Notes: a model not told the origin generated them from the letters alone. DNA of 64,000 nucleotides from Candidatus Latescibacterota bacterium (GCA_965208105.1 OZ242318.1:448001-512000); one strand, 5' to 3'. Shown: positions 39,965 through 60,707, counted from the stretch's first letter. Numbers and translations are program-made.

Positions 39965-42862
39965 ATGGCACCGGTTCTTTGCCTGCTCTGCATCGCACTC
40001 TTGCTCGCCAAGGCCTATCCTCAGGACAATTCAGCACGCCTGGGCAGATCATCCGAGCTGATCTCCTCCCGGCATTTTCTGCGGCACCAGGCCCCACCCT
40101 ACCGCAATTTCGCTCTCGAGCCATTCACTCACTACCCGAATCACTCCTTTCCCTACGCCCATCGGGCGCAAAGCTTTTACGGCCCCCTCGGCGACTATCT
40201 CACCTCCGGCTATTCCCTCTTCTCCTGGAACGAGCGTCGACGGCCGGGCCTTCAATACGGCAGTGCGATTTTCAAGGACATCGACGTGTTCCGTCCCATC
40301 TTCGATCACGTCATCGTGGCCAGCGACGGCTACAGCGATTGGGGCTACAGCTTCATCGTGGGCGACGATCTCATCGCCCACCTGACTCCCCTCACCATGT
40401 CCCACGTGACCTTTCACGGGGTCCGGCTCGACGCCCAGGTCCCCCGGTTGGAGTTCACGCTCATGGGCTCGCGCATCGAGCGCCCCTGGCACTGGGTCGA
40501 AGGCAGCAATATCGGGCCCTGGATGATCGATGGCGTCCACTATGCCGATACCAGCACCATGCTCCTCGGCGGCCGTGCCCAGACACGGATCGGAGCCCTG
40601 CGTCTGGGCATCAGCGGCGCCAACGCCCACATCTTCCAGAGCACGCAACCGGACAACACTCCAAAGGGGGTCATTCGACCCGACCACGTGCGCATCGGGT
40701 GGCTCGGTGTTCGCTTCACCGACGATTCCCCCTCCGATGACCGCGGCGGAGCGGTAGTGCAGGAACTGGACATCATCGTCAACGGACAGGTGCGCCCCGA
40801 TATCCGGCCCCGCATCATCACACACCGCGCCGGGGTGCGGTCGGCGGTTGGAACCTACTCACGGACTACGGGCGAATTCCGCGGAACCGGATACAAGCGC
40901 AGGGGATACCCCTACTACGTGGACTATCTCTATCGCATTCTGCTCGAGGACGGGGCCGATGTCAGCGCCAACACCCAGGTCGATGTACTTCGGGAGACCT
41001 TCACCATTCCTCCCCCGGGAACGGTGCTGCAAGCCGACGGCGACCAGCGGGTCGTCGTTTTGTACGACCTCTTCGAAGAACCTCTCATCGAGTCGGTGGA
41101 GATAGAGGCCCTGCTGGCCAACGACTACCGCGTTGAGGCCTTCATCCTTACCGAGCAAAACCCCAGAGCCCACAATCTTCAATCCCAGTGGAGGACCAGC
41201 TCTTTCATCACCCACCTGCGCGCTCCGGGCAACGTGCAGGACCTGAGCAACCTGGCACGGCGGCGCTTCGTGATCGGGGAAAACACAGCCATCTTCACCT
41301 ACAGCGCCGATGCCAAGCTCGACTTGCCGGGCATCGAAATCGACGCCGAGTACGCCCGGTCCGCCCGCTATTCGCGCTATCCCGCCTACATGGGAGACAC
41401 CCCGATCTTTCGCCGGGCACCGCACTACGGAGAACACGGCTCCGCCTATTTCGTCACGGCGAGTCACTGGTTTTCCCGCGGCCGCCTCGGGGCCGAGTAC
41501 TTCGCCATCAACCCCGATTTCAGGACCCGCCTGTTCAGCCGCCGCGAGACCACCGGCGCCAGCGAGTACATCGGGGTAGGATTCAGCCAGATGTTTGCAA
41601 TGAACCTGGTGCAGGACAACGACGACGGCGACCGCTTCCCCGAAGGCGGCAATCGTCCAATAGGTGCTCCGAGTTACGGCGGCGACATAGACGGGGTCTT
41701 CCCCAACCAGGACGAGAACAAAGACGGCATCCCCGACACCAACCGGAACTTCAATAGTATCCCCGACTGGAACGAACCTTTTCTCATGTTCGAATCCGAC
41801 CCCAACGAGTACGTCTACGGGCTCGATCTCAATCACAACGACGAGCCCGACCGGCGCGAGGACGACTACGAACTCGATTACCCCTACGACTTCGATCAGC
41901 GCGGCTTCCACGCCTTCGCCCAGGTTCACCTCAGTACCAACTGGATTCTGGGGATGGGCCGCTACCGCACCGGGGAGATCGCCGGTGCCGGCCGCAACCA
42001 CGCCGACTACACCCTCCTGAGCTACCGCCGCAAGGGCGCGGACCGGGTGCTCTCCTTGTTTTTCGAAAACAACCTGCGCCGAGTCAGGGACAACATCCAG
42101 GACAACTTCAGCGCGAGCAAAGACAATCCCCGCCTCGGGCTTTACTTCGACTACCGCGGCTACGAGGCCGTCAGGCCCGGCATCCAGGGAGCCCTGCTCT
42201 TCAGGAGCAGGAGCCATCAGCCAGACTTCCTCCTCTACCGGGACAGCTACGTCAACGAGACCTACCTGGAGGGTCACCTCAATCCCTGGTCCAGCCTCAA
42301 CCTGGTCCACAAACTGCGCCTGCGTCTCAACTGGCAGCAGGGGGGAGACCTGCCCGGCGGCACCTCGCAGCGGGCTCGCCGCCTCGACTACTGGACCCTG
42401 GTCAGCCGCGCCGACTACACCTGGCAGTGGGGCCGCCTGCAGATCAAGCCCAGGATCAAGTTCATGTTCCTGCGCCTGGTCGACCAGGACGCCGACCGCC
42501 AGCCCGGAGGGCGCTACGCCGCGCGCGAGCTGATCGCCGAGCACCGCATCATTCCCATCCTCCTGGTCTCCTGTCCCCTCCTGCGCCGCACCACGATGCA
42601 ACTGGGGCTGCAGGGGCTGGGCCCGCTGCCCTACCGCCTCGAAGACCGCGTCCGCGAGCGCAACAGCCTGCGCCGGCGCATCGGCTTTCTCACTCTGACC
42701 AACCGCTCTCTCTACTTCGGCTACGACCTCTACAACATCGTGGGCATGCAGCGCGACAAACTGAGCTACGACGACACTTTCAGGCAGAGCTCCAACCGCG
42801 ACACCTGGTCTTTCTTCATCCGCACATTGGTAGGGTTTACCGAGTACGGGAGGGCAATCTAG
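39965..42862 (+). CDS. Large hypothetical exported protein, paralog 2 (predicted outer-membrane, Ca-binding repeats)
   Basis: Signal peptide MAPVLCLLCIALLLAKA; DNDDGD, DENKDGIPD and DLNHNDEPD repeats; amphipathic beta strands. Confidence 0.88.
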   Translation: MAPVLCLLCIALLLAKAYPQDNSARLGRSSELISSRHFLRHQAPPYRNFALEPFTHYPNHSFPYAHRAQSFYGPLGDYLTSGYSLFSWNERRRPGLQYGSAIFKDIDVFRPIFDHVIVASDGYSDWGYSFIVGDDLIAHLTPLTMSHVTFHGVRLDAQVPRLEFTLMGSRIERPWHWVEGSNIGPWMIDGVHYADTSTMLLGGRAQTRIGALRLGISGANAHIFQSTQPDNTPKGVIRPDHVRIGWLGVRFTDDSPSDDRGGAVVQELDIIVNGQVRPDIRPRIITHRAGVRSAVGTYSRTTGEFRGTGYKRRGYPYYVDYLYRILLEDGADVSANTQVDVLRETFTIPPPGTVLQADGDQRVVVLYDLFEEPLIESVEIEALLANDYRVEAFILTEQNPRAHNLQSQWRTSSFITHLRAPGNVQDLSNLARRRFVIGENTAIFTYSADAKLDLPGIEIDAEYARSARYSRYPAYMGDTPIFRRAPHYGEHGSAYFVTASHWFSRGRLGAEYFAINPDFRTRLFSRRETTGASEYIGVGFSQMFAMNLVQDNDDGDRFPEGGNRPIGAPSYGGDIDGVFPNQDENKDGIPDTNRNFNSIPDWNEPFLMFESDPNEYVYGLDLNHNDEPDRREDDYELDYPYDFDQRGFHAFAQVHLSTNWILGMGRYRTGEIAGAGRNHADYTLLSYRRKGADRVLSLFFENNLRRVRDNIQDNFSASKDNPRLGLYFDYRGYEAVRPGIQGALLFRSRSHQPDFLLYRDSYVNETYLEGHLNPWSSLNLVHKLRLRLNWQQGGDLPGGTSQRARRLDYWTLVSRADYTWQWGRLQIKPRIKFMFLRLVDQDADRQPGGRYAARELIAEHRIIPILLVSCPLLRRTTMQLGLQGLGPLPYRLEDRVRERNSLRRRIGFLTLTNRSLYFGYDLYNIVGMQRDKLSYDDTFRQSSNRDTWSFFIRTLVGFTEYGRAI
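42241..42862 (+). repeat. 622-bp near-identical direct repeat, copy 1 (3' end of paralog 2)
   Basis: Manual alignment with 45249-45870 shows about 8 substitutions and no indels (offset 3008). Confidence 0.95.
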
Positions 42863-42957
42863 TGAAGCCTGGCCTGCGCTGGGGCCAGTTGAGGCAATTG
42901 CTGGATCCATATTAATTGATTTTTCTAACCAATTAATGGAGAGTAAGTTAGAGAGTC

Positions 42958-45870
42958 ATGTCATTGCTATTCACACTTGCACTTCTAGCTCTGTACCTGT
43001 CCGCTGCTGCGGCCGAAGATGACCGACTTGGAGGAGGTCCGGGCGAGTCGGAGGTAATCTCCGCCCGCCCCTTTCTGCGCATGCCGCGGGAAGGTTATCG
43101 CAACTACGCCCTGCAAACCTATACTCCCTACCCGGACCATTCTGTCCCCTACAATCAAAGACCCCGGGCCTTTTTCGGACCCATGGGAGACTATCTCATC
43201 ACCGGCTATGGACTTTACTCCTGGAACGAGCGCCGCCTGCCCGGCCTGGAGTACGGAAGCGCCATCGCGAAAAACCTGGACGTATTCCGCCCGATTTTCG
43301 ACCACGTCATCGTCGGCCGCGACGGCTACGGCAGCTGGGGCTACAGTCTCATCGTCGGAGACGGCCTGATGGCCCGCTTCACTCCCCTTACCATGTCGAA
43401 GACGGACCTCAATGGAACGCGCCTCGACATCCACACTCCTCACCTGGAAATTACCCTGGCCGGCTCGCGCATCGAGCGCCCGGTACACTGGGTGGAGGGC
43501 ATGAATACCGCGCCCTGGATGATCGAGGGGACCCACTACGCCGACGCCACATCGCTGCTGTTGGGCGGACGCGCACAGACCAGGATCGGCGCCCTGCGCC
43601 TGGGATTGAACGGCGCCAACGTGCACATCTACGACAGCACCCGGCCCGGCAACTCCCTCAAGGGAATCATCCGGCCGGACCACCCCCGGATCTTCTGGCT
43701 GGGCCTTGAGATCAGCGACGACTCACCCGCCGACGGCGGCGGCGGCGCAGTGGTGCAGGAACTGCAGCTTGTCGTCAACGGAGAGGCCAGGCCCGACATC
43801 CGGCCCCGCGTGGTCAGCCACGGGGCAGGGGTGCGCTCCGCGGTGGGAACCTACTCCCAGGCCACAGGGGAGTTCCGCGGCACCGGCTACAAGCGCAGAG
43901 GCTATCCCTACTTTGCCGACTATCTCTACCGCTTCGAGCACGAGGACGGAATCGACGTGAGCGCAAACACCAATCTGGCCGCTCTCCTCGAAACCTTCGT
44001 CATGGAGCCTCCAGGGACGGTGCTGCGGGCAGACGGAGACGATCTGGTGGTCGCCATGTTCGACCTCTCGCGGGAACCGGCAATCGAGTCGGTTGTTGTG
44101 GACGCCCTGCTGGGCAACGACTACCGCGTCCGCGTATTCACCCTGATCGATGAAAACCCCAGGGCCAAGGGGCACGCTACCCGGTGGAGGCCCAGTTCCC
44201 CCATCATTCGCCTGCGCGCCCCTGGCAACGTGCAGGATCTGTCCAACCTGGGGCGCCGGCGCTTCAGGATCGGCGAGAACACCGGCCTCTTCACCTACAG
44301 CGCCGATTTGGCGCTCGACCTGCCCGGCCTCGAAATCGACGCCGAGTACGCCCGCTCCGCGCTCCTTTCGCGCTATCCGGGATTTATGGGGGAAACTCCG
44401 ATCTTCCGCCGGGCGCCCCACTTCGGGGAACACGGCTCCGCCTATTTCGTCACGGCCAGCCGCTGGTTTTCCCGCGGTCGACTGGGCGCCGAGTACTTTG
44501 CCATCAATCCCGAATTCCGCACCCGGATGATCAGCCGCCGCTGCTGCCGGCTCGGCGAACTCATCGGCATAGGCTACAGCAGTATGCTGGGCCTGAGCCT
44601 GGTTCAGGACAATGACGACGGCGACCGCTTCCCCGAGGACGTGGGAAGGGTTCTCGGCAGTCCAAGCGACGGAGGAGACGCGGACGGAGTCTTCCTCAGC
44701 CAGGACGGGAACAACGACGGCATCCCCGACACCAACCGGAACTTCAACAGTATCCCCGACTGGAACGAACCTTTTCTCATGTTCGAATCCGACCCCAACG
44801 AGTACGTCTACGGACTCGACCGCAACAACAACGACGAACCCGACCACCGCGAGGACGACGCGACCCCCGACTATCCCTATGACCTCGACCAGCGCGGCTT
44901 CCACCTCTTCGGGCAGGTACACCTGAGCACCCACTGGACCATGGCACTGGGCCGCTACCGCACCAGGCAGATCGAGGGTGCCGGCCGCAACCATGCGGAC
45001 TACGCACTCCTGAGCTACCGCCGCAAGGGCGCGGACCGGGTGCGCTTCCTGTTCTTCGAAAACAACCTGCGGCGCCTGAAGGACGGAATTCAGGACAACT
45101 TCGCCTCCTACGGCGACCGTCCGCGCCTGGACCTCTACTTCACCTTTCGCGGCTACCTGAGCGAAATCTTCCTGAATGTCCCGCCTGGACTGCAGCCGGC
45201 CATCCTCTATCGCACAGGGAGGCGCCACACCGATGTGCTACTCTACCAGGACAGCTACGTCAACGAGACCTACCTGGAGGGTCACCTCAATCCCTGGTCC
45301 AGCCTCAACCTGGTCCACAAACTGCGCCTGCGCCTCAACTGGCAGCAGGGGGGAGACCTGCCCGGAGGCGCCTCGCAGCGGGCTCGCCGCCTCGACTACT
45401 GGACCCTGGTCAGCCGCGCCGACTACACCTGGCAGTGGGGCCGCCTGCAGATCAAGCCCAGGATCAAGTTCATGCTCCTGCGCCTGGTCGACCAGGACGC
45501 CGACCGCCAGCCCGGAGGGCGCTATGCCCCGCGCGAGCTGATCGCCGAGCACCGCATCATTCCCATCCTCCTGGTCTCCTGTCCCCTCCTGCGCCGCACC
45601 ACGATGCAACTGGGGCTGCAGGGGCTGGGCCCGCTGCCCTACCGCCTCGAAGACCGCGTCCGCGAGCGCAACAGCCTGCGCCGGCGCATCGGCTTTCTCA
45701 CTCTGACCAACCGCTCTCTCTACTTCGGCTACGACCTCTACAACATCGTGGGCATGCAGCGCGACAAACTGAGCTACGACGACACTTTCAGGCAGAGCTC
45801 CAACCGCGACACCTGGTCTTTCTTCATCCGCACATTGGTAGGGTTTACCGAGTACGGGCGGGCAATCTAA
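42958..45870 (+). CDS. Large hypothetical exported protein, paralog 3
   Basis: Signal peptide MSLLFTLALLALYLSAAAA; collinear with paralog 2 over the full length. Confidence 0.88.
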   Translation: MSLLFTLALLALYLSAAAAEDDRLGGGPGESEVISARPFLRMPREGYRNYALQTYTPYPDHSVPYNQRPRAFFGPMGDYLITGYGLYSWNERRLPGLEYGSAIAKNLDVFRPIFDHVIVGRDGYGSWGYSLIVGDGLMARFTPLTMSKTDLNGTRLDIHTPHLEITLAGSRIERPVHWVEGMNTAPWMIEGTHYADATSLLLGGRAQTRIGALRLGLNGANVHIYDSTRPGNSLKGIIRPDHPRIFWLGLEISDDSPADGGGGAVVQELQLVVNGEARPDIRPRVVSHGAGVRSAVGTYSQATGEFRGTGYKRRGYPYFADYLYRFEHEDGIDVSANTNLAALLETFVMEPPGTVLRADGDDLVVAMFDLSREPAIESVVVDALLGNDYRVRVFTLIDENPRAKGHATRWRPSSPIIRLRAPGNVQDLSNLGRRRFRIGENTGLFTYSADLALDLPGLEIDAEYARSALLSRYPGFMGETPIFRRAPHFGEHGSAYFVTASRWFSRGRLGAEYFAINPEFRTRMISRRCCRLGELIGIGYSSMLGLSLVQDNDDGDRFPEDVGRVLGSPSDGGDADGVFLSQDGNNDGIPDTNRNFNSIPDWNEPFLMFESDPNEYVYGLDRNNNDEPDHREDDATPDYPYDLDQRGFHLFGQVHLSTHWTMALGRYRTRQIEGAGRNHADYALLSYRRKGADRVRFLFFENNLRRLKDGIQDNFASYGDRPRLDLYFTFRGYLSEIFLNVPPGLQPAILYRTGRRHTDVLLYQDSYVNETYLEGHLNPWSSLNLVHKLRLRLNWQQGGDLPGGASQRARRLDYWTLVSRADYTWQWGRLQIKPRIKFMLLRLVDQDADRQPGGRYAPRELIAEHRIIPILLVSCPLLRRTTMQLGLQGLGPLPYRLEDRVRERNSLRRRIGFLTLTNRSLYFGYDLYNIVGMQRDKLSYDDTFRQSSNRDTWSFFIRTLVGFTEYGRAI
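45249..45870 (+). repeat. 622-bp near-identical direct repeat, copy 2 (3' end of paralog 3)
   Basis: Matches 42241-42862. Confidence 0.95.
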
Positions 45871-45921
45871 GGCCCCCCCGGGGAAACCGGCTGGAACCCC
45901 TTTTCGGGATCTTCTCTTCTT

Positions 45922-48072
45922 CTACATCTGCAGCGGGATGTTGCGAATCATTCCGGTGAGGGAGTCCACCATGAGCCAGATGCCGTTGCACAGCACGTGG
46001 CCGACGATCAGCCCCAGGAAGAATGGCTGTGTGCGGCGGTAGGCCGCGGCGCCGCCGTAGCGCAGCACCACCTTCTTGATCAGACAGGCCGCCAGAATAC
46101 TGAACCACATGTAGTAGATGACCATTCCGACGGGAAATCCGAGAGGATGCAGGGGCCACCACAGAAAGCGCATCCGCGCCCACAGCATGATCAGCATGGC
46201 AGCGGCCCCTCCCAGGTAAAATCCCAGACCGGTCCAGTACACCCCCCGGGGCTCCAGGTTGCGCAGCGCCACGTTGTAGATATCCGCAGGGGCAACCTGG
46301 AAATAGGATCCCCGCAGGTTGATGCCGCCGTATTCGTGGGCCATGTGCAGGATCATCCAGAAAGCGCCCGCGACGCCGATGGCCAGGGCCAGGACCACCG
46401 CGCCAAGCAGGCGGCCCCTGCTGCGCCGGTCCACCTCCCCCACCAGCTTGAGGCCGGTGGCGAGGACGGTCATCAGGTTGATGGTACCGTTGAGGGACCA
46501 GGCATAGCCCATGGAGAGGCAGAATACCCCTGTGGGGCCTATCAACTGCGATCCCAGGATCCCGGTCACCAGCTCGGGCGCCCCCAATGGAGACGACATC
46601 CCCACCAGACCGGCCTCGGCCACGCAGCGGGTTATGCCGATGAAGACACACAGGACGACCGCTACGAAAACCGCCGCCACCCACAGCGGAGTTCCCATCA
46701 GCCAGAGCCACCCTGCCATGACCAGGGGTCCTCCCACCGCACCTGCCACGGCAGTGCGATAGGAGAGGATCTCGTCGCCGTCGTCGACATGGGGAGCCCG
46801 CCCGAGAGCCTTGCGCGCCACGTTCTTCAGGTGCTCGCGTCCCATCCACAGGCCCGCGGCGACCAGTGCCATGAATGCACCAGCTCCCTGGTAGCCCATG
46901 AGCGGCACCGTGCTGAACCCATGGGTCACCGTCTGACCCGAGCCCAGGCCCATGAACACCAGGGCCCATCCCTCCAGCTTGAAGAGCAGGTGGAACAGGC
47001 AAATCCCGGCGGCGATCTTGGTGTTGACGAAGTAGCAGAATCCGATCCAGATGAAGCTGATCTGCACGATGATCAGCTCGACGTCGAGGACCGGGAAGCT
47101 CCAGAACATCCGCGGATGCACAACGGCCGGGTCGTAACTGTGCCATGCCTTGAGACTTCCCACTACCAGGGGAAGGGCACAGCCCGCCCACATGGCGGGG
47201 CTCTTGAAAAAGCGATTCACCAGCATCTCCCCCTTCTCCCCGCTCACCAGGGCCAGGGGCACCTGCGCCACCGGATATGGAAGGCGCTCGCGCTCCGCCC
47301 ACTGGCGCCGCAGGATCACCGCCATGGAAATCAGTGTGGCGTAAAGGGCACCCAGGAAGATCCCCCACCAGAACAGAGGCTCCACCCAGGCCTCGTAGGC
47401 AACCGAATGCCCGGCGCCCACGCCTTCGTAAAAGGCCTGGTTCTGATTGCCGTCGTCTACCATTATGCGGCGCTCGGGCAGGAGGGGAAAGAGTCTTTCC
47501 GCCCACCTGTTCTCGATGGAGGCAAAGTAGAAGAGGGCGGTGATTCCAGGCAGGAGGATCTCGCTCAATCCAAGGGAGCACACCGCCGATACCACCAGCA
47601 GCATGACGTAGACCAGGATCAGCTCCGAGCGATTGAGCGTCAGACTGCGGCCGTGGACTGCCATGGCCCAGTTCAGCACCAGCAGGAGGACCAGAAAGGA
47701 GGAGTATATCAGGAGCGGAGAGTAAAAATCAAGGGAGTCCGGCGGCCACCAGGCGCCAAGGTAAAGTCCGACGGCCAGCAGGGCGGTGAGCAGCGCCCTG
47801 TCCGGGCGTCCCGCGCCCAGCTTGAACAGCAGGTTCAGCACCCCGACCAGCAGGACCAGGAGCAGAAAGGCCCCCGAGGTGGTGGCGTTCTGGGCCATGT
47901 AGGGACCCTTGATGAGGATATTGCCGTAAGGCGCGCCAATGGCCAGGAAAAAGCTGAGTATTCCCCCCAGCAGGAAGGACCGCGCCCTCACCCCCTGGCG
48001 GCGGTCCCCGGAGCGGCTCCGGTCCTCGAGATATCTCTTCAGCCCAGGAGGCAGTTCGCGCCTCAACAGCAC
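45922..48072 (-). CDS. Polytopic membrane protein, DUF6785/DUF6784-like
   Basis: 716 aa with many TMs; QWAERERLPYP, R.VAEAG, WWPLHPLGF and K.VVLRYGG..YRR..PFFLGLI.G motifs (recognised from memory). Confidence 0.75.
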   Translation of the reverse strand: MLLRRELPPGLKRYLEDRSRSGDRRQGVRARSFLLGGILSFFLAIGAPYGNILIKGPYMAQNATTSGAFLLLVLLVGVLNLLFKLGAGRPDRALLTALLAVGLYLGAWWPPDSLDFYSPLLIYSSFLVLLLVLNWAMAVHGRSLTLNRSELILVYVMLLVVSAVCSLGLSEILLPGITALFYFASIENRWAERLFPLLPERRIMVDDGNQNQAFYEGVGAGHSVAYEAWVEPLFWWGIFLGALYATLISMAVILRRQWAERERLPYPVAQVPLALVSGEKGEMLVNRFFKSPAMWAGCALPLVVGSLKAWHSYDPAVVHPRMFWSFPVLDVELIIVQISFIWIGFCYFVNTKIAAGICLFHLLFKLEGWALVFMGLGSGQTVTHGFSTVPLMGYQGAGAFMALVAAGLWMGREHLKNVARKALGRAPHVDDGDEILSYRTAVAGAVGGPLVMAGWLWLMGTPLWVAAVFVAVVLCVFIGITRCVAEAGLVGMSSPLGAPELVTGILGSQLIGPTGVFCLSMGYAWSLNGTINLMTVLATGLKLVGEVDRRSRGRLLGAVVLALAIGVAGAFWMILHMAHEYGGINLRGSYFQVAPADIYNVALRNLEPRGVYWTGLGFYLGGAAAMLIMLWARMRFLWWPLHPLGFPVGMVIYYMWFSILAACLIKKVVLRYGGAAAYRRTQPFFLGLIVGHVLCNGIWLMVDSLTGMIRNIPLQM

Positions 48073-48109
48073 CTGCTTTCCACTGGAATGAAAACCGGAT
48101 TCCGCCCAC

Positions 48110-50758: not shown

Positions 50759-53700
50759 CCGCCTTCCATGGCTATGCCCTCACCCAGCATCTGACGGGCC
50801 CTTTCCATGTGCTGCTCCCGTTCCTCATCCTTCAAGGTGTGCCAGATGAGGAACTCCTTGCGCAATCCATGCACGAAGCGCTGGTTCGTCGAGCGCCAGA
50901 AGGTGTCCTGGCCGCTGACGCGCTGAATGAAGAACTCGGCCGCGTAGATATTCTCCACCTCGGTGGGCTCGAAAACGATCTGCAGGTACTGGCTCACGCC
51001 CATGTCGAAGGGGGCCAGCCAGATCAGCATCTGTACCGCGTACTCCTCTCCCCTGGCCCCGCTTTCGCGAACCAGCCGGATTTCCTCGGTGAAGAAGGTT
51101 CCCAGGGACTCCTCGCTGTAGGCCCTGAAGTAGTTGACCAGAAAGCCGCACAGTCCCTCCACTTCCGCCTTGCCCACCATGAAGGGAAAGGGGAACTCCC
51201 AGCGGTCTCCCTCGGGAGCCGGCAACTGCCAGCGCCGCACCACCTCGGGGACCGCCGCCTGCGCCGCCATGCGCGCCGGGTAAAGGGTGGAGAGCAACAC
51301 CACCGCCATCACCAGCAGCGCTGCCACCACCGCAGACAGGGAGGAATAGTTCAGATTGACCCCCTCCAGGAAATTTGCCCAGATCAGCGCCTTTCCCATG
51401 CTCTGGCCGAGGACATATCCGCCGGCGATGCCCAGGACCGCATAGACGCAGGCCTCCGCCACGAAGAGCATGGAGATGTGGGCGGGAGCCAGACCCACCG
51501 ATGAGTAGATGCCGATCTCGCGGGAGCGCTCGTGTACCGCCCCGACCATGGTGTTGAGCACGATGAGGGCGGCGATGATCACGGGAACGATCAACTGCCC
51601 CAGGCCCTCCACCACCGTCATTCCCACGGAAGTGTAGGAATAGACGTTGATCCCATCCTCCTCCTCCAGGCCTGCGAACAGGCTGGTGGCCTGGCGCAGC
51701 AGAAAATCCTCGATCAGATCCCTCGCTTCCACTTCGGGGTGGAAGCGGACGGCCACCGAGCGCAGGTCGCCCCCCATCTGGCGGGCCAACTCGTAGGGCA
51801 CGACAAGAACGGTCTCGGGACGCTGGTGCACGAAGGGCCGGATGCCGCGGGGGTCTTCCCCAACTGCCGCTGCTCCGGTCTGGTCCACCGAGAGGTGGAA
51901 ATCGGCCGGGGTCGCCATCCCACCATCGAGGTCGCGACTGAGCGCCAGGCGGTTTGAGTCCACGAGGCCGCGCAGGAGCAATTGGCGGCCGAAAATACTG
52001 ACCCGCGCCCGGCCTACATCCTCTTCCGCGATCCCCAGCAAGGCGGCCATTTCCACTGGAACCAGGCAGGTGGATTCACCCGCCTCTTCAAACCAGGTGC
52101 CGGCCCGGAGAACCGCGTCCAGGACGCCGATTTGTTCTTCCTGGGGCGCCAGCCCCAGCAGGGCTCCGGCGCGGACCGAGCGCTTTCCGGATGTGACCGT
52201 GATATAGCCCTTTTCCTCCCCGCCCTGGAGTATAAACCAGCTTCGCGGACTGACGATGCCGTGGGACTCGAAATGAGAGCGCACGTATTCGAGGGCGGCC
52301 AGCTCCAGGGGTTCCCATCCCCAGTTCCTGATCAGGGCACCGGAATAAGCCCCTCCCTTGCCCAGCGGAAACCCCATAAAGCGAATCTGATTCTTGAATG
52401 AAGAGAAGGATAGCACGGTGAAGGTAAGCAGAACGAGAGTCGTCAGGGTCAGCCCGGTGCGCAGCTTGCGCCTCCGCATGTTCGAAATGCCCAGCATGAA
52501 AGCGGCATAGGCGGCGCCGACGCGGCTGATGTCGGTCTCGTGTACCTGGGCCGCAATCGCCTGGTAGTCGCGCATGTGGCGGTTGAAGCGGCCGACCACG
52601 AGCAGCAGCACGAAGACCGCCATGGCCATTATGGCAAAGGCCAGGAGGAGCACCAGAGGATGGGCGATCTCGAAGGCCGGGTGCACCTGCGAGATCACCA
52701 CCCAGATAAAGAGGAGCAGGAGAGCGAAGCCGGCCAGTTGCCGACGGATGTCGGCGGCGGCGAGGAACAGGCGTTCGGCGAAGAAGGCGGCTGGAATAAC
52801 CAGGGCCAGAAAAAACACCATGCCCTTGATCACGTCGTTGAGGGTGACCAGCGCATCCGGGTAAACGCGGGACTCGGTTCCCAGGGCGGCGCGAACGCCG
52901 GCCACGTGGCGGTCCCACTGCCTCGCCCGGCCGGCCTCCTCCGCCTCTTCCATCAAGGAGCCCGCCATCGCGTGAAGTTGGGTAAGACGCTGGTTTTCGA
53001 TGGCGTGCCGGCGCATGGTCCGCAGGCGGGCTTCGGTGAGCTGCCACATATCGCGCAGGGCGAGCACGGTGGTGCGGGTCAGCTCTTCCTCGGCGAGGAG
53101 ATAGCCGATTCCGCGCGCTTCCTTCTCGCTTGCGGTTCCCTGGCTGTTGACCAGCAGCATGAGGCCACCGTTCACGATGATCTTGAGACGGTCGCCATAG
53201 GCCCTGCCCGGAGGACCGAATACCACCCCTACGAGGTCCCGGGGGGACGGACTCAAGGCATAGCCGCAACGGCGGGCGTCGCGTCCTCCGGCATCGAGGA
53301 TCTTCAGATTCTGCATGGGCAGGAGAAATCGCGGATCGAGGAGACTGAAGAGGGGCCGTTGAACAGCCTCGAAAAGAACCAGGGTTTTCTTGTTGGTGGT
53401 GAAGCGGATGCTGCTCTGCAAGGAACCGTTGTCGGCAGGCTCCCCGTGGTGGTCCTGCGCCCTTATGCTCAGATCGGGGGCGAGGACGATCGACCCGGTC
53501 TTCGGCTCGAGCCCGTAGGCGCTGACCATGGCCATGCCCTGGGGCAGACCTCTGATTTCGGCATTGCCGTCCGTGCCGCAGATGTGGTAGCGCCACCGGC
53601 GAACCCCTTGGCGAGTCCCTTCCAGCCCCAGGTCCTGGCGGGCCGTTCCCCGGCCCTGGTGGGGGTCCGCAGGCCTTATGGCTGCCAGCGCCCCCGCGAC

Positions 53701-55197
53701 GGCCCGGTCCGGCAACTGGCTCCTGGGGGGAAAGGTGCGCACTTCAAGGCGCAGATCCCGCAGGCGGTCCTTGAGTGCCTGGCCGAACTCGTCCATACCG
53801 GCGAAAAGTTCAGGGTCGTCGAGGGCGCGGTGCAGGATCCTCTGGAGCAGGGCGATCTGTCGCTCCAGGTTGCCGAGGTTCACCTTCCCGGGACGGTCCA
53901 GGGGAGTATCCAGGTTGAACCGTCCGTCGTGCACGGTGACGAAGGCCAGGGAGACGATCCCGGCCGCGTGGGCCATCTCGCTGTTGACCGGGGCGCCCTG
54001 GGGCACGAAAGAGGACCATCCCAACCCCTTGATCGGGCTGATGCCGTTGACGAGGACTTCATTGCCATGCCTGCCCAACAGCGGCGCCATTTGCCTGGCG
54101 TAGGCGGTAAACCTGCGGCCGAAGGGGGCATAGAAGCGCCGCAAATCGGCGTTGTGGGTACTGTTCCACAGGCCCAGAAGATCGCTTTGGCTGGAAAGAT
54201 CCAGGCTTATGAAGAGCTTCACCTGGAGGGGGTCCGCGACCCGTCCGACGTAATCCTCGTGGAGGCGGGCGTGGCGCTCGAGAAAATCCACCATCCCCTG
54301 CATGGCCTGAAAATGAGCCGAAGTGGCAGCCAGAACCACGGTGCGGGCCGGCGGATGCGCCTTCAGGTGGCGGGCAAGCTCCAGAAGGGCGGTTATGCTG
54401 CAGGCGGCCTCGGCACTGGGGGCCAGCGCCGGCACCACCGAAGTGCCGTCGTAATAGGCCTCTACCACGATAATTTCGCGATTCAGCTCCGGGTGCGCCC
54501 CCGCAATCCTGCCGACGATATTCCAGGCAGGCCTCTCCTCCCAGTCCATCCTTCCCCGCAGCAGCCCTTCAACCTCGCCGCCCTGCCGGAGACGCTGGAG
54601 CAGGCTCAGGCCCGCATTCCGCCCGATCCAGAACCGCGGAATATCCAGGGGCGCTTCAACAAATTTGTCGTTTGCCTGTCTCCAGGTGGAGCTCTCGGGC
54701 TCAATGAAGATTACCGCCCTTGCTCCCAGGGCCGCGGCGTGCAGCCATCGGTCCTCGCTGTTGAATTCGAGCAGGGCGATGCGCCCCTCCACCTGCCGGC
54801 CGTTGAACTCGGACCAGTCGCCGTGCCCGCCATAAATCATGGGCGCTCTCACCCCCTCCGCAGGCAGTGTAGAGGTGCGCACCAGGTTGGGCCACAAACT
54901 CCAGATCTCGAAGACCCTGCCTTCCACCGTCAGCAGGAAGCCCCGGTCCATGGGCACCACCACCCCGTACTCCTCCCGGCGCAAATCCTCCACTCCGATG
55001 GCACCCAGTTCGGCCTCTACATAATCCGCCGCCAGAGCACAGCCAGGATAGCCCACCACTCTCGAGCCCGGCGCACTGAAGCGCTCGATGACACCGCGCA
55101 GATGGTCCACGTCGGCACCGGCGCAGGCATGCGCAATCAGAAGCCCGGAAGCTACCCGGAGAAGAAAAAATGCTCGCAAGGGAAATTTTTTCGGCAT
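50755..55197 (-). CDS. Fusion protein: signal peptide, PA/M28-like peptidase fold, TM block, MacB/FtsX-like permease, C-terminal soluble domain
   Basis: SRVVGYPG, NIVGRIAG..IIVVEAYYD and PPARTVVLAA (M28 fold); NMRRRKLRTGLT and HERSREIGIYSSVG..LYPARMAA (FtsX). Confidence 0.8.
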   Translation of the reverse strand: MPKKFPLRAFFLLRVASGLLIAHACAGADVDHLRGVIERFSAPGSRVVGYPGCALAADYVEAELGAIGVEDLRREEYGVVVPMDRGFLLTVEGRVFEIWSLWPNLVRTSTLPAEGVRAPMIYGGHGDWSEFNGRQVEGRIALLEFNSEDRWLHAAALGARAVIFIEPESSTWRQANDKFVEAPLDIPRFWIGRNAGLSLLQRLRQGGEVEGLLRGRMDWEERPAWNIVGRIAGAHPELNREIIVVEAYYDGTSVVPALAPSAEAACSITALLELARHLKAHPPARTVVLAATSAHFQAMQGMVDFLERHARLHEDYVGRVADPLQVKLFISLDLSSQSDLLGLWNSTHNADLRRFYAPFGRRFTAYARQMAPLLGRHGNEVLVNGISPIKGLGWSSFVPQGAPVNSEMAHAAGIVSLAFVTVHDGRFNLDTPLDRPGKVNLGNLERQIALLQRILHRALDDPELFAGMDEFGQALKDRLRDLRLEVRTFPPRSQLPDRAVAGALAAIRPADPHQGRGTARQDLGLEGTRQGVRRWRYHICGTDGNAEIRGLPQGMAMVSAYGLEPKTGSIVLAPDLSIRAQDHHGEPADNGSLQSSIRFTTNKKTLVLFEAVQRPLFSLLDPRFLLPMQNLKILDAGGRDARRCGYALSPSPRDLVGVVFGPPGRAYGDRLKIIVNGGLMLLVNSQGTASEKEARGIGYLLAEEELTRTTVLALRDMWQLTEARLRTMRRHAIENQRLTQLHAMAGSLMEEAEEAGRARQWDRHVAGVRAALGTESRVYPDALVTLNDVIKGMVFFLALVIPAAFFAERLFLAAADIRRQLAGFALLLLFIWVVISQVHPAFEIAHPLVLLLAFAIMAMAVFVLLLVVGRFNRHMRDYQAIAAQVHETDISRVGAAYAAFMLGISNMRRRKLRTGLTLTTLVLLTFTVLSFSSFKNQIRFMGFPLGKGGAYSGALIRNWGWEPLELAALEYVRSHFESHGIVSPRSWFILQGGEEKGYITVTSGKRSVRAGALLGLAPQEEQIGVLDAVLRAGTWFEEAGESTCLVPVEMAALLGIAEEDVGRARVSIFGRQLLLRGLVDSNRLALSRDLDGGMATPADFHLSVDQTGAAAVGEDPRGIRPFVHQRPETVLVVPYELARQMGGDLRSVAVRFHPEVEARDLIEDFLLRQATSLFAGLEEEDGINVYSYTSVGMTVVEGLGQLIVPVIIAALIVLNTMVGAVHERSREIGIYSSVGLAPAHISMLFVAEACVYAVLGIAGGYVLGQSMGKALIWANFLEGVNLNYSSLSAVVAALLVMAVVLLSTLYPARMAAQAAVPEVVRRWQLPAPEGDRWEFPFPFMVGKAEVEGLCGFLVNYFRAYSEESLGTFFTEEIRLVRESGARGEEYAVQMLIWLAPFDMGVSQYLQIVFEPTEVENIYAAEFFIQRVSGQDTFWRSTNQRFVHGLRKEFLIWHTLKDEEREQHMERARQMLGEGIAMEGG

Positions 55198-55316
55198 GGA
55201 GCTTTCCCGGGGGCCATTCAGAATTTCTATCTATTGAAAGCGGGCCCGGCCCCGCTGCCCGGCGGACCCTCCTCAAACGCGAAAAGGCACCCTGGCAACC
55301 TCGAGCAAACGCGGAT

Positions 55317-55345
55317 TTGATCGGCTCCCACCGGTTTAGTATAGT
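55317..55345 (+). promoter_or_regulatory. Putative sigma70 promoter for the fucosidase in the divergent intergenic region
   Basis: TTGATC-17 nt-TATAGT. Confidence 0.45.
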
Positions 55346-55404
55346 AAACTATAATCCGACCGTCCCACCCCCATTCAACCCCGGCAGGAGAGGAGAGTCT
55401 CCAG

Positions 55405-56718
55405 ATGGAACTGAAAAAGAGCGGCGGCGCCACCGACTGGTTCGTCCACGACCGATTCGGTCTCTTCATCCACTGGGGTCTCTACGCCCTTCCCGCGCGC
55501 CACGAGTGGGTCAAGCAACGCGAGGAAATTGCGGACGAAGCCTACGACCGCAAGTACTTCTCGCGCTTCGATCCCGACCTCTACGATCCGGACTCCTGGG
55601 CAGAGGCCGCCGCAGCCGCCGGCATGAAATATTTCGTGGTCACCAGCAAACACCACGAGGGCTTCTGCCTTTGGGATTCGCAGCTTACCGACTACAAGGC
55701 GACCAGGACGCCCGCTGCACGCGACCTCCTGAAACCCATGGTCGAGGCCTTTCGCCGGCGCGGCATGAAGGTCGGGTTCTACCACTCCCTCATCGACTGG
55801 CATCACCCGGACTTCGTCATCGACGACCTGCACTCAATGCGCAACCACCCCGACCGCGAACGGCTCAACGCCGGGCGCCGGCAGAAAAGCTACATCGAGT
55901 ATCTGCACGGCCAGGCGCGGGAGCTGTTGACCCGGTTCGGCCGCGTCGACCTGCTGTTCTACGATTTCAGTTACCGGCCAGGAGAGCGGGGCCGCTCCCC
56001 GGATCTCACCGGCAAGGGACGCGACGACTGGAACAGCCGCGACCTCATTGCGTTGACCCGCAAGCTGCAGCCCGACATCCTCGTCAACGACCGGCTGGAC
56101 CTGCACGAAGTGGAGGGAGGCTGGGACTACATGACCCCCGAGCAGTTTCTGCCCCGGGACCCGGTCACAGTTGGCGGCCGGCCGGTGTTGTGGGAAACAT
56201 GCCAGACCTTCTCCGGCTCTTGGGGCTACCACCGCGACGAGACCTCCTGGAAGAGCGTCGAACAACTGATTCGCATGCTGATCGAGGTGGTGAGCAAGGG
56301 GGGGAACCTCCTCCTGAACGTGGGCCCCACCGCCCGCGGGGAGTTCGACGACCGCGCCCTGGAGCGCCTGCGCGGGATGGGCGAATGGATGAAGCGTCAC
56401 GGGCGCTCGATCTACGGCTGCACCATGGCACCTGGAGAGTTCGCCGCGCCACCGGACTGCCGCCTCACCTACAATGCGCGCACCCGCCGGATCTATCTCC
56501 ACGTCTTTGCCTGGCCGTTCAGGCAACTTCACCTCGACGGCTTTGCAGGAATGGTCGATTACGCCCAGCTACTCAACGATGGTTCGGAGATACTCATCAG
56601 TGAAGATCCAGGCCACTACCGCAGCGGCGACCGCCACCAGCGGCAGACCCTGACCCTTGAACTTCCAGTGGAGAAACCGCGCGTCGCAGTGCCCGTGGTA
56701 GAGCTCTTTCTGAGCTGA
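55405..56718 (+). CDS. Alpha-L-fucosidase (GH29), no signal peptide
   Basis: RFGLFIHWGLY, SKHHEGFCLWD, LLFYDF nucleophile region, WETCQT..SWGY and GGNLLLNVGP. Confidence 0.95.
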   Translation: MELKKSGGATDWFVHDRFGLFIHWGLYALPARHEWVKQREEIADEAYDRKYFSRFDPDLYDPDSWAEAAAAAGMKYFVVTSKHHEGFCLWDSQLTDYKATRTPAARDLLKPMVEAFRRRGMKVGFYHSLIDWHHPDFVIDDLHSMRNHPDRERLNAGRRQKSYIEYLHGQARELLTRFGRVDLLFYDFSYRPGERGRSPDLTGKGRDDWNSRDLIALTRKLQPDILVNDRLDLHEVEGGWDYMTPEQFLPRDPVTVGGRPVLWETCQTFSGSWGYHRDETSWKSVEQLIRMLIEVVSKGGNLLLNVGPTARGEFDDRALERLRGMGEWMKRHGRSIYGCTMAPGEFAAPPDCRLTYNARTRRIYLHVFAWPFRQLHLDGFAGMVDYAQLLNDGSEILISEDPGHYRSGDRHQRQTLTLELPVEKPRVAVPVVELFLS

Positions 56719-56751
56719 GCCGGGGAGACACCCTCCGGCGGCCGGGGCGGC

Positions 56752-57177
56752 TCACTCTCCTGATTTGCGCGCCTCCAACAGGCGGACCGCCACATAGGCC
56801 AGGAGCGCGAAAACGAAGAAGACGAGCAGCATCCATGCAATCCCCTGCAGGGTTTCGATGATGGTGCGGTAGACTTCGAGGACCCAGCGCTCGGTGGTCA
56901 GGGCCAGCGCGAACGCCTCTCCGGTCCCACCCTTCCGCAACCCGGGCTGGGCCAGGGAACGCGGCGTTATGTAGCGCTCCAGCTCCCAGACCCGCACTCC
57001 CTTGGAAATTCCCACCACATAGATGGCGAAGCGCATGTACCTCACCCAGGCGGAGCTGATCTCCTCGGCGATGATGCGCTGCACAATCCCGGCGATCGGC
57101 CCATTGAAGAGGTGGGCGACCAGAGCCGAAACCCCCAGGGCGATCAGGAACGTCACCAGCAGCAGTGTGATGAACAC
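56752..57177 (-). CDS. Small hypothetical membrane protein (about 3 TMs)
   Basis: GTG at 57177 after a strong RBS (AAGGAGG); hydrophobic helices. Confidence 0.75.
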   Translation of the reverse strand: MFITLLLVTFLIALGVSALVAHLFNGPIAGIVQRIIAEEISSAWVRYMRFAIYVVGISKGVRVWELERYITPRSLAQPGLRKGGTGEAFALALTTERWVLEVYRTIIETLQGIAWMLLVFFVFALLAYVAVRLLEARKSGE

Positions 57178-57297
57178 CTTCCTCCTCCTTTCACGAAGGG
57201 ACAACGATGCCGCAACCTGGACCAGGCCGAACACTGGCGGACCCAGGACGGATTTCAACGCGGAAGCGGCCTTCCACCTCTCTTCCCGATGCACCGT

Positions 57298-58341
57298 TCA
57301 ATGGACCGTGCGTTCCCACAGCACCACGCGCTCGGGGTCGACCAGGGGAAGGACGGTATCTCCCGGCCGCCAGGACGGCTCTCTGGCGGCAAGGACATGG
57401 ATCTGGCATCCCGCCCACTCTACGAGAAGAATCCTGTGGTGCCCCGCGTCTTCGATCACCCGCACCAGGCCAGGGTCCTCCCCGCCGGCGAGGGCGATGT
57501 CTTCGGGCCTTATTCCCAGAAGCATCTCGCCCTTCCTCCCCCCAGCGGGCATTACCCGCGTGCCCCCGGCGGCCACCCAGTAGCCCTCGAACTCCCGGAC
57601 TTCGAGAATATTCATGGGTGGACGGCCCAACTGCCTGGCCACCACGGGTGACAGGGGCCGGAGATAGATCTCTTTCGCTCCACCCGTCTGGAGCACCCGG
57701 CCGCCCTCCAGCACGGCAATGCGGTCGCCCATGGACATGGCCTCGGCCTGGTCGTGGGTTACGTAAATCATGGGAATCCCCAGCTCGCGCTGGAGCACGA
57801 CCAACTCCACCCGCAAAGCCTCGCGCAGTTTGGCATCCAGATTGGTGAGAGGCTCGTCCATGAGAAAGAGGCGCGGCCGCCTGACAACGGCGCGGCCAAT
57901 GGCGACGCGCTGCATCTCTCCGCCGGACAGTTGTTCGACCCTGCGCTCCAGGAGATCTCCGATCCGCAGCAGAGACCCCGCCCATTGGATCCGCTCCTCG
58001 ATCTCGGCCGCCTTCAATCGGCGGCCGGGAGCCCTCAAAGGGAACTCCATGTTGCGGCGCACGGTCCAATCCGGGTAGAGGGAAAAATTCTGAAAGACCA
58101 ATGCCACGTCGCGCCCGGGAGGCAGCCGGTGGGTTATGTCCTCTCCGCCCATTTCGATACGGCCGGCTTCGGGCATCTCCAGTCCGGCAATGGTCCGTAG
58201 AAGGGTCGTTTTTCCGGCTCCGGTGGGTCCCAAAACCACCAGGAGCTCGGAAGGGCCCAACTCCAGGCTGACGGAGCGCAGAGCCTCGACGCGGCCGAAG
58301 CGCTTGCAAACACCCAGAAGCCGGAGAAATCCGTTTTTCAC
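57298..58341 (-). CDS. Sugar ABC transporter ATPase (MalK-like, TOBE domain)
   Basis: GPTGAGKT, LSGGEMQR, LMDEP and YVTHDQ; true start is the GTG at 58341 overlapping the upstream stop. Confidence 0.93.
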   Translation of the reverse strand: MKNGFLRLLGVCKRFGRVEALRSVSLELGPSELLVVLGPTGAGKTTLLRTIAGLEMPEAGRIEMGGEDITHRLPPGRDVALVFQNFSLYPDWTVRRNMEFPLRAPGRRLKAAEIEERIQWAGSLLRIGDLLERRVEQLSGGEMQRVAIGRAVVRRPRLFLMDEPLTNLDAKLREALRVELVVLQRELGIPMIYVTHDQAEAMSMGDRIAVLEGGRVLQTGGAKEIYLRPLSPVVARQLGRPPMNILEVREFEGYWVAAGGTRVMPAGGRKGEMLLGIRPEDIALAGGEDPGLVRVIEDAGHHRILLVEWAGCQIHVLAAREPSWRPGDTVLPLVDPERVVLWERTVH

Positions 58342-59402
58342 AGAGCCTCGCCCGTATCCGGGTCGAAGCAGCGAATGTGTCGCAGGTCGAAGCCCAGGGA
58401 AACCTCCTCGCCGCGTCGATACGAGCCACCCCCACCCACCTGCATGGTCAGGCGGCCCGACCCCGTATCCAGGTAGACATTGCGGCAGAATCCCAGGTAC
58501 TCCTCCGTCAGCACCCTGGCTTCGAGGAGCCCCGGAAAAGCCGGGCGCACGAACTCCGGACGCACCCCCAGGACAGCCCTGCCCACGCGAAGGGGACGCG
58601 GCAAGGGAAGATCCCACCCTCCGGCTGACGGGGTGAAGCGGCAATCCTCCCCTTCCCCAGCCACCTCTCCCTCGATCAGGTTCATTGCCGGACTGCCGAC
58701 GAAATGGGCAACGAAGAGGCCGGCAGGCCGATCGTAGACTTCGGCGGGGGTACCGCTTTGTCTGATGCGCCCCTCGTCCATCACCACCACCTGGTCGGCG
58801 AGGGACATGGCTTCCTCCTGGTCGTGAGTGACGTAGATGGTGGTCACTCCCATTTCCAGTTGCCGGGAGCGGATCCACTCGCGCATCTCCAGGCGCAGGT
58901 CGGCGTCGAGCGTGCCCAGGGGCTCGTCCATCAGGTAGAGCCGCGGCCTGCGCACCATCGCCCTCGCCAGGGCTACCCGCTGCTGGTCCCCCCCGCTCAA
59001 CTGGGGCGGATACAGGTCGGCCAGTGCTTCGAGCCCGAGGCGCGCGAGGATCTCGGCGACGCGCTCGCGGCGCTGGCGGGGGACACCCTCCATGCTCTCC
59101 AGGGGGAAGGCGATATTGTCGCGCACCGTCAGGTGGGGATAGAGCGAGTAGAACTGAAAGACGAAACCCACATCCCGCGCCGCCGGGGACATGGCGCTGA
59201 CGTCGGCTCCGGCCACTTTGATCTGTCCCCCGGTGGGGACCTCGAGCCCGGCGATCATGCGCAGAGTGGTGGTCTTGCCGCACCCGGAGGGCCCGAGAAG
59301 TACCACGAACTCCCCTTCCTCGCAGCGCAAGTCGATGCCTTTGACCGCTGCGGTACCCTCCGCATAGATTTTGCTGAGGCGGTTCAGTTCCAGGAAGCTC
59401 AT
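58338..59402 (-). CDS. Sugar ABC transporter ATPase (MalK-like, TOBE domain)
   Basis: GPSGCGKT, LSGGDQQR, LMDEP, YVTHDQ and FVGSPAMN. Confidence 0.95.
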   Translation of the reverse strand: MSFLELNRLSKIYAEGTAAVKGIDLRCEEGEFVVLLGPSGCGKTTTLRMIAGLEVPTGGQIKVAGADVSAMSPAARDVGFVFQFYSLYPHLTVRDNIAFPLESMEGVPRQRRERVAEILARLGLEALADLYPPQLSGGDQQRVALARAMVRRPRLYLMDEPLGTLDADLRLEMREWIRSRQLEMGVTTIYVTHDQEEAMSLADQVVVMDEGRIRQSGTPAEVYDRPAGLFVAHFVGSPAMNLIEGEVAGEGEDCRFTPSAGGWDLPLPRPLRVGRAVLGVRPEFVRPAFPGLLEARVLTEEYLGFCRNVYLDTGSGRLTMQVGGGGSYRRGEEVSLGFDLRHIRCFDPDTGEAL

Positions 59403-60410: not shown

Positions 60411-60420
60411 GGATTATTCC

Positions 60421-60701: not shown

Positions 60702-60707
60702 AGGTCA

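Follow-up and report, generated by a model that had tools for sequence, protein, structure and literature searches.

Three co-oriented genes for large membrane proteins, named here P1480, P882 and the DUF6785/DUF6784 protein, constitute a genuine conserved unit, which we state with high confidence; they form one operon and are sometimes fused. They lie in a stretch of 64,000 nucleotides from a Candidatus Latescibacterota bacterium (GCA_965208105.1 OZ242318.1:448001-512000), analysed as a whole and called the window below. An initial annotation of this stretch had proposed that positions 39965-59402 are a candidate uptake locus, in which the three membrane proteins act together with two secreted proteins of about 965 amino acids, a GH29 fucosidase and two MalK-type ATPases. 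All the genes that it described were found where it had placed them. The three genes of the module are the following:

50755-55197, minus strand: P1480, 1480 amino acids, first gene of the operon
48110-50758, minus strand: P882, 882 amino acids, second gene of the operon
45922-48072, minus strand: DUF6785/DUF6784 protein, 716 amino acids, polytopic, third gene of the operon

The genes for P1480 and P882 overlap by 4 bases, and a gap of 37 bases separates P882 from the DUF6785/DUF6784 gene. The GC content is 0.60-0.65 across the locus, and long antisense open reading frames (ORFs) are abundant in this GC-rich window. In the five large genes, GC at third codon positions reaches 0.80-0.86, which favours their frames over the long antisense ORFs; the real genes were picked out by these values together with domain matches.

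Conservation of the three-gene unit

One genome per species was scanned with a P882 alignment, which matched 410 stretches, 382 of them encoding a relative. All linkage counts given below refer to the best 80 of these 382 loci, with flanks of 10 kb. The 80 loci all come from metagenome-assembled genomes (MAGs), titled Latescibacterota or Latescibacteria, Gemmatimonadota-type, Handelsmanbacteria (one) or 'uncultured bacterium'. Upstream sequence of at least 1.5 kb is available in 77 loci, and in 72 of these the P1480 gene immediately precedes that of P882 on the same strand, the exceptions being L020, L025, L033, L061 and L064. A match to the DUF6785 profile is present near P882 in 60 of the 80 loci; some of the 20 negative loci are truncated, and those with full flanks include at least L014, L026, L031, L038, L059, L060, L062, L063 and L065. 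The order of genes is DUF6785-P1480-P882 in most loci and P1480-P882-DUF6785 in the clade of the window, and the linkage is kept in both. DUF6785/DUF6784 Pfam domains are also found in 11 of the 120 best relatives of the membrane half of P1480. These 11 P1480::DUF6785 fusions, proteins of about 2100 amino acids, were fetched, and in each of them the P1480 portion continues without a break into a C-terminal part that resembles DUF6785; the 80 loci encode none of them. Collectively, the adjacency of P1480 and P882 (72/77), the DUF6785 linkage (60/80) and the fusions bear out the earlier grouping of the three membrane genes as a unit.

Three of the exceptions share a particular arrangement. Indeed, in L020, L025 and L033 (about 5200-14800), the position of P1480 is taken by a conventional MacB_PCD-FtsX permease together with an ABC ATPase and a 903-residue FG-GAP/ASPIC protein, whose genes precede P882 and DUF6785. 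An ABC nucleotide-binding domain is encoded within 10 kb in these three loci and in L001 (4/80) and in none of the other 76. At the level of the locus, the cognate ABC ATPase expected for an FtsX permease is thus as a rule missing for P1480, and an ATPase encoded elsewhere is possible.

A FastTree tree of P882 was built from 80 rows, with SH-like supports and a midpoint root that serves for drawing only; ORFs shorter than 800 amino acids, including that of L004, were excluded. It separates an 18-row paralogue clade, with 56-59% identity to the window P882, from a 53-row clade that contains the window. The window and L001, its 91%-identical relative, are sister to L002 and L003 with a support of 98. 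Among the 80 loci, five MAGs carry three loci each and eight more carry two. The conservation of the module spans Latescibacterota-type genomes, often with two or three diverged copies in each, and of the relatives at about 40% identity, two stand under Lentisphaerae or Planctomycetota names.

Two loci show irregular gene content. In L003 (CBDAOB010000005.1, 3-16993), four DUF6785-type genes surround a single P1480-P882 pair, two upstream and two downstream, which represents a local expansion of the third subunit. In L004 (9986-12629), the P882 homologue is split into ORFs of 698 and 199 amino acids, by a frameshift or an assembly error.

Architecture of the three membrane proteins

P1480 comprises, in order, a signal-anchor, a periplasmic region of about 765 residues, four transmembrane (TM) segments, a loop of about 265 residues, an FtsX domain with three TM segments and a conserved C-terminal tail of 170 residues. 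The FtsX domain belongs to its Pfam family (residues 1206-1313, E 2e-13, 50.9 bits against a cut-off of 25.5), and the PDB sequences matched by residues 1203-1322 are YtrF, MacB, LolC and LolF. A Pfam scan found no nucleotide-binding domain in P1480, and an internal duplication of FtsX was not detected when residues 770-940 were compared with 1180-1330 by hhalign (probability 0.3%).

The N-terminal part of the periplasmic region resembles a peptidase. Residues 30-329 align with the M28/PA aminopeptidase 2ek8 (PDB, E 3e-5); a PA domain is found by Pfam under its cut-off (3e-4), and Pfam Peptidase_M28 has no match in the window P1480. The canonical M28 motifs, as generally described for the family, were read against the 2ek8 alignment. 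SHHD is replaced by AYYD (HxD by YYD), GANDDASG by ALAPSAEA, and the EE pair is absent. These losses, which concern the HxD, the bridging Asp and the Glu-Glu, are present in all 60 aligned sequences, the window's included. As judged from sequence, the M28/PA-like domain lacks the canonical zinc-ligand and catalytic motifs, which agrees with the designation pseudo-M28 of the initial annotation. The Atlas neighbours of P1480 are clusters of 1600-1860-residue proteins with FtsX, in which 36-64% of the members carry Peptidase_M28, and some P1480 homologues carry MacB_PCD.

For the window P882, Pfam and NCBIfam scans gave no family match. Its relatives are numerous: 914 were found at E<=1e-3 among 7998 candidates scored, and an exhaustive search of cluster representatives gave 927 at the same threshold; the best 120 are 68-97% identical. 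When 15 distant relatives were scanned with the Pfam OPT model, 7 matched at E<=0.01 and 5 scored above the cut-off of 25.8 bits, among them P0312 (64 bits) and P0375 (49 bits). Since it is these distant relatives that pass the cut-off, and not the window proteins, the OPT homology of P882 is transitive and holds at the superfamily level. The label OPT given to P882 in the initial annotation is hence supported through distant relatives only and not by the window protein itself. The nearest Atlas cluster to P882 is auto-named 'Peptide transporter family protein' (score 0.86), which serves as a lead only.

The third protein belongs to both Pfam families after which it is named, DUF6785 (PF20581, E 1e-96, 324.8 bits) and DUF6784 (PF20580, E 9e-26, 90.5 bits); a literature search found no paper on either. 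Its DUF6785 profile aligns with the P882-family profile over 521 columns (hhalign probability 97.2%, E 3e-11), and the operon therefore encodes two different permeases of the OPT superfamily. On this profile evidence, P882 and the DUF6785 protein are both OPT-superfamily members, distantly related to each other. Sequence and profile searches of the PDB (P882, the P882 family, DUF6785 as single sequence and as profile, and the barrel-family protein A965 described below) gave no meaningful relative. Family-averaged hydropathy, used in place of a dedicated topology predictor, indicates about 14-16 hydrophobic segments in P882 and a similar number in the DUF6785 protein, as compared with the 16 or 17 of OPT proteins.

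P882 possesses two particular regions. The first is an invariant Cys-x4-Cys...Cys-x2-His cluster (C383, C388, C398, H401) in a basic loop, at residues ~383-401. The second is a periplasmic loop of about 240 residues (~541-781), located between late helices, which is rich in beta structure and ends in Asp-rich repeats. On our count, 49 of the best 120 relatives carry PDZ domains, and in 6 aligned PDZ-bearing sequences they are inserted after residues 749-751 of this loop. A complex prediction of P1480 residues 30-780 with residues 545-780 of the P882 loop returned a score of 0.00, which gives no answer and speaks neither for nor against binding. Asp-rich repeats of the DxDxDG type occur at residues 745-775 of the P882 loop and also in loops of A965 and its paralogues B970 and C969 (residues ~583-640); they could possibly be a cation-binding feature common to P882 and these proteins.

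Possible functions and surrounding genes

The genes that surround the other module copies differ between clades. The largest group of loci has a divergent M42-like gene upstream of the module and, downstream of it, YbjN/CesT-, PspA-, DnaJ-like, spermidine-synthase-like, DUF350 and LPG_synthase_TM genes. YbjN/CesT-, PspA- and DUF350-type genes are found in 38, 38 and 36 of the 80 loci, respectively, and LPG_synthase_TM in 45; amine-oxidase and spermine/spermidine-synthase-like genes also lie downstream of the module in the main ortholog class. In other clades, the neighbours are M42/M20 peptidases, GHL10, BNR, sulfatases, PhyH dioxygenases, ATG22-type MFS, enolase-superfamily enzymes and regulators. 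M42-like, M42 and M20 peptidase genes adjoin the modules of three different clades, and sulfatases are found within 10 kb of the module in L002 and L004. Altogether, these neighbourhoods show no single substrate theme and no consistent glycan signal. A protein of about 506 amino acids with no Pfam match (cluster c36) also recurs near modules of four different clades:

L003, 1566-3086: cluster c36 protein
L026, 2-1522: cluster c36 protein
L061, 14837-16297: cluster c36 protein
L064, 16302-17111: cluster c36 protein

Our confidence in the function of the module is low-to-moderate. The reading that we tentatively favour, still somewhat short of probable, is that P1480, P882 and the DUF6785 protein form one inner-membrane complex, which would act as a receptor-assisted secondary (ion-gradient-driven) importer of peptides or peptide-bearing fragments. 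The dead-peptidase/PA domain would capture such peptides or fragments, assisted in many relatives by the PDZ pair inserted in the P882 periplasmic loop; the FtsX scaffold would then hand the captured substrate to the OPT-like permeases, which would take it up for cytoplasmic breakdown. In the lineage of the window, two tandem beta-barrels may give passage through the outer membrane, and the cytoplasmic GH29 and an orphan MalK pair would be neighbours, possibly of the same catabolic theme, outside the machine. In favour of this reading are the operon structure, the conserved linkage, the fusions and the presence of several module copies per genome. Import is suggested by the characterised OPT members, which, according to the passages of PMC3061005 used here, take up oligopeptides, glutathione or metal chelates by coupling to cations, and recognition of peptide termini is suggested by the pseudo-peptidase/PA domain together with the PDZ inserts. 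The M42-like, M42 and M20 genes beside the modules of three clades are a further hint at peptides. The same passages describe prokaryotic OPTs as uncharacterised as of 2011, genome context predicting peptides for most of them and oligosaccharides for one subcluster. The inner-membrane translocon of the initial annotation survives in so far as both permeases fall in a superfamily whose characterised members import.

Several observations weigh against such an importer. Neither the window P882 nor the DUF6785 protein matches Pfam OPT (PF03169) at E<=0.01, so that neither is a member by this model, and the NPG and KIPPR motifs are found in neither of them. The AlphaFold2 model of P882, based on 19 closely related rows, is unusable, with a mean predicted local distance difference test (pLDDT) of 43.5. 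Across the listed relatives and related loci, P882 is 68-77% identical, as compared with 41-58% for P1480 and DUF6785, and a conservation this high would be less expected of a nutrient permease than of core machinery. Glycan-type neighbours (GHL10, sulfatase, BNR, GH29) are as frequent as peptidases, so that the neighbours point to no one substrate class, and the YbjN/PspA/DnaJ-like/DUF350/LPG_synthase_TM setting of the largest ortholog class is envelope-stress-like. Furthermore, known FtsX proteins work with ATPases, often in periplasmic or outward tasks and not in import.

The conservation of P882, this synteny and the outward-facing roles of FtsX keep alive an unlikely alternative, a machine of envelope maintenance or export. 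FtsX and the dead peptidase would here pass force to a periplasmic domain, as in FtsEX-EnvC, LolCDE and MacB, and would regulate hydrolases or move an envelope component, the OPT-like proteins being a flippase or channel. The dead peptidase partner has a parallel in EnvC of FtsEX-EnvC, and YtrF, MacB and LolC are the nearest matches of the FtsX domain. This alternative would also fit the very high conservation of P882, the YbjN/CesT-, PspA- and DUF350-type genes that follow the module in the largest locus group, the LPG_synthase_TM gene in 45/80 loci, and the full MacB_PCD-FtsX permease with ABC ATPase beside P882/DUF6785 in L020, L025 and L033. On the other hand, the PspA-cluster synteny may be mere inheritance within one phylum, 76 of the 80 loci have no ATPase gene, and a genome may carry several diverged copies of the module, set among catabolic genes of various kinds. 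In addition, the characterised OPT members are all importers in the passages of PMC3061005 used here.

The window also carries genes on both sides of the module, and a third member of the barrel family at a distance:

37914-39713, minus strand: LepA
39965-42862, plus strand: A965, 965 amino acids, secreted
42958-45870, plus strand: B970, tandem paralogue of A965
55405-56718, plus strand: GH29 alpha-L-fucosidase, Alpha_L_fucos domain, no signal peptide
56752-57294, minus strand: P180, membrane protein of 180 amino acids, absent from the gene list of the initial annotation
57298-about 58341, minus strand: MalK-type ATPase 2, ABC_tran and OB_MalK/TOBE_2 domains
58338-59507, minus strand: MalK-type ATPase 1, likely start 59402, ABC_tran and OB_MalK/TOBE_2 domains
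20857-23766, plus strand: C969, third barrel-family paralogue, no module adjoining

A965 and B970 are 75% identical to each other and 42% identical to C969. Both possess signal-peptide-like N-terminal segments, and B970 converges with the DUF6785/DUF6784 gene across a gap of 51 bases, which confirms the earlier description of two tandem secreted proteins converging on three co-oriented membrane genes. SlpA_C (PF21620) scores remain under the cut-off of 35 bits (A965 19.9 bits, E 2.8e-4; B970 16.2 bits; C969 24 bits), so that none is a member of that family, and Pfam scans found no SLH domain in the three proteins. We found 118 relatives of A965, many of which carry precomputed PF21620 SlpA_C. 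The AlphaFold2 model of A965, from a 50-row alignment, is almost all-beta with long strands (pLDDT 79.7, predicted TM-score 0.79). Its best Foldseek matches are MtrB, Deinococcus SlpA, TonB-dependent transporters and LptD (E 2e-7 to 1e-3), with TM-scores of only ~0.2. The model supports A965 and B970 as large outer-membrane beta-barrels that form their own family in an SlpA-like barrel class.

A gene of the A965 family is found near the module in L001, L003 and L004 (3/80), all from the subclade of the window; the barrels of L004 occupy a different position relative to the module, and L002, of the same subclade, ends before a barrel adjacency could show. The family is multi-copy, with up to about 8 of its members on contigs of one and the same length, and is restricted to some Latescibacterota-type genomes. 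The outer-membrane channel that had been proposed is thus in line with the predicted barrel, and what fails is its general association with the module. The neighbours of C969 are a ROK-family protein, an unannotated ORF of 502 amino acids (18991-20499, minus strand), a tRNA-Lys and a GFO/IDH/MocA oxidoreductase.

GH29 appears to be an ordinary member of the alpha-L-fucosidase family, both by domain (Pfam Alpha_L_fucos 5e-89, 299.6 bits) and by similarity (PDB 6gn6, E 2e-111). It has no signal peptide, since the domain begins at residue 9 with no earlier in-frame start, and it is divergent from P1480 across a spacer of 207 bases, as had been described. The two MalK-type ATPases are also present; to the earlier description, which is accurate, it can be added that they lie on the minus strand, convergent with GH29, with the unlisted P180 downstream. 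They are not co-transcribed with GH29, which separates them from the module. The closest NCBIfam for the pair is the UgpC subfamily, under its cut-off, and the start of the MalK-type ATPase 2 gene, as inspected, overlaps the stop of the MalK-type ATPase 1 gene. MalK-type ATPases that carry TOBE domains usually work with type-I permeases of the MalFG type. The Pfam-scanned ORFs of the window include no such permease or binding-protein gene, which makes the pair orphan ATPases. P180, which starts 3 bases past the end of MalK-type ATPase 2 and is convergent with GH29 across 33 bases, has two or three hydrophobic segments and no family match; it is conserved in L001 with 76% identity and may be an unrecognised membrane partner of these ATPases. 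Powering of P1480 by the MalK pair was considered and rejected, as the pair is of the MalK/TOBE type and absent from 70 of the 72 loci with P1480 directly upstream of P882.

Pfam scans covered 49 ORFs of the window (16 + 33), several of which had no match. As had been claimed, they revealed no SusC/SusD, TonB-dependent receptor, type-I ABC permease, solute-binding protein or TRAP gene, with the caveat that FtsX itself is an ABC-permease-type domain. Adjacent SusC and SusD genes, which define a SusCD locus, do not occur among these ORFs, and no DctP/Q/M or TctC-type components were detected in the locus.

Near the module, a GH29 homologue is found in one locus of the 80 (L001), and the same holds for the MalK pair with P180. 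The module has the barrels, GH29 and the MalK pair as neighbours in this lineage only; they are not conserved parts of it. That the whole segment 39965-59402 is one non-SusCD locus for fucosylated oligosaccharides, with the barrels as channel, the module as translocon, GH29 as hydrolase and the MalK pair as energisers, is therefore distinctly unlikely. In its favour, the parts all lie side by side, GH29 has no signal peptide, the arrangement is retained in L001, and barrels adjoin the module in the three relatives of the subclade. Moreover, L002 and L004 have sulfatases within 10 kb, GHL10 or BNR genes adjoin other module copies, and genome context led to the proposal of an oligosaccharide-specific OPT subcluster (PMC3061005, same passages). 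These points are opposed by the frequencies, one locus in 80 for GH29 with the MalK pair and three for the barrels, by C969, which is not beside a module, and by the 76 of 80 module loci with no ABC ATPase within 10 kb. The MalK genes, convergent with GH29, are also cut off from the module by it, and the type-I MalFG-type permeases that are their usual partners are not in the window. The conserved linkage of barrels, module and GH29 expected by the initial annotation is thus largely contradicted for the wider locus, and its single fucosylated-glycan utilisation locus gives way to an adjacency confined to one lineage, with mixed neighbours elsewhere. Since barrels adjoin the module in three subclade relatives and sulfatases lie near two, the module could possibly have been recruited into a sulfated-fucan context in this lineage.

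Lastly, uptake of metal chelates by a yellow-stripe-like system is highly improbable: prokaryotic OPTs fall in an iron-siderophore subdivision (PMC3061005, same passages), the module of the main ortholog class is followed by spermine/spermidine-synthase-like and amine-oxidase genes, and the Asp-rich repeats of the P882 loop may bind cations, but neither the window nor the scanned cluster representatives contain a siderophore-synthesis, TonB-dependent receptor or metal-regulator gene, and the context described in that source argues for peptides in many prokaryotic members.

Further features of the window lie outside these questions. An Rfam scan of the locus gave no regulatory RNA, and a promoter/terminator scan gave weak consensus matches only. 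Two elements follow directly past the MalK genes, at 60851-63999. One is a group II intron, matched by Rfam D1-D4 at 60851-60986 and with its reverse transcriptase/maturase ORF at 61278-62639; the other, a DDE transposase gene at 62812-63999, runs off the window end. GC falls to 0.56 at 60001-62000. A polysaccharide export pair, a Wza-like Poly_export/SLBB protein and a Wzz/GNVR chain-length determinant, is encoded at 32279-35349 on the minus strand. The region 5387-17715 carries genes for Alternative Complex III (multihaem cytochrome, Fe-S subunit, NrfD, ActD) and for an aa3-type cytochrome oxidase (COX2/1/3/4, SCO1), and these two clusters mark the organism as an aerobic respirer.

Comparison with known systems

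Latescibacterota, which are widespread and uncultured, degrade complex organic matter, and their substrate uptake is largely uncharted. A literature search at listing level gave no description of the module. In PMC12993501, on Latescibacterota MAGs from sponges, the part covered by a term search has no passage on oligopeptide transport, peptidase, fucosidase, TonB or sulfatase.

The comparison with SusCD loci and with solute-binding-protein-dependent TRAP/TTT systems is one of functional analogy only. Like them, the module is a multi-copy transport module among catabolic genes, and by analogy its periplasmic receptor domain would deliver substrate to a secondary transporter; no sequence relationship links them to the module, and their components are not present in the locus. 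Deinococcus SlpA (PF21620; PDB 8ae1, 7zgx) resembles the barrel family through the sub-threshold SlpA_C of all three window paralogues and its place among the top Foldseek matches. The barrel family differs from it in the lack of a detected SLH domain, TM-scores of ~0.2, multiple copies and Asp-rich loop repeats.

P1480 shares with MacB, LolCDE and FtsEX (type VII ABC) a C-terminal FtsX domain with three TM segments, preceded by a large periplasmic domain, and its best sequence matches, YtrF, MacB, LolC and LolF, belong here. In contrast to these systems, it has no nucleotide-binding domain and, in 76/80 loci, no ABC ATPase within 10 kb; it carries an extra block of four TM segments and an N-terminal pseudo-peptidase, and it is coupled or fused to permeases that resemble secondary transporters. 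'Orphan' FtsX permeases exist, e.g., the ADOP family. The OPT family (TC 2.A.67, PF03169) is related to the module through the distant relatives of P882 that pass its cut-off and through the profile relationship of DUF6785; both proteins are polytopic as well. OPT fusions to protease domains are on record in the passages of PMC3061005 used here, and a PDB sequence search found no bacterial OPT structure. Unlike OPT proteins, those of the window have no match to the OPT model and no NPG or KIPPR, and the module pairs two different OPT-like subunits with an FtsX/M28 partner that looks obligate. The Cys/His loop of P882 and its 240-residue periplasmic insert, with PDZ in many relatives, are further differences.

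The discordance between the single-genome picture of GH29 and the MalK pair and their distribution elsewhere cautions against inferring a utilisation locus from adjacency in one genome. The module, if it is a transport or envelope machine, would represent a novel way of building a system for nutrient uptake or envelope function, and it would give DUF6785/DUF6784 and the un-modelled 880-residue family a first functional context. One may go further and suppose, as a possible though doubtful extension, that an ATPase-less FtsX scaffold with a dead aminopeptidase receptor, coupled or fused to a heteromeric OPT pair, is a new inner-membrane transport machine, duplicated and diversified in Latescibacterota as a counterpart of SusCD and solute-binding-protein systems and sometimes teamed with giant barrels. 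The component superfamilies are known, and what the searched literature does not describe is their combination: two OPT-like subunits, an ATPase-less FtsX and an inactive M28, in multiple copies, which joins an OPT-type superfamily barely studied in bacteria to an FtsX protein with an inactive peptidase.

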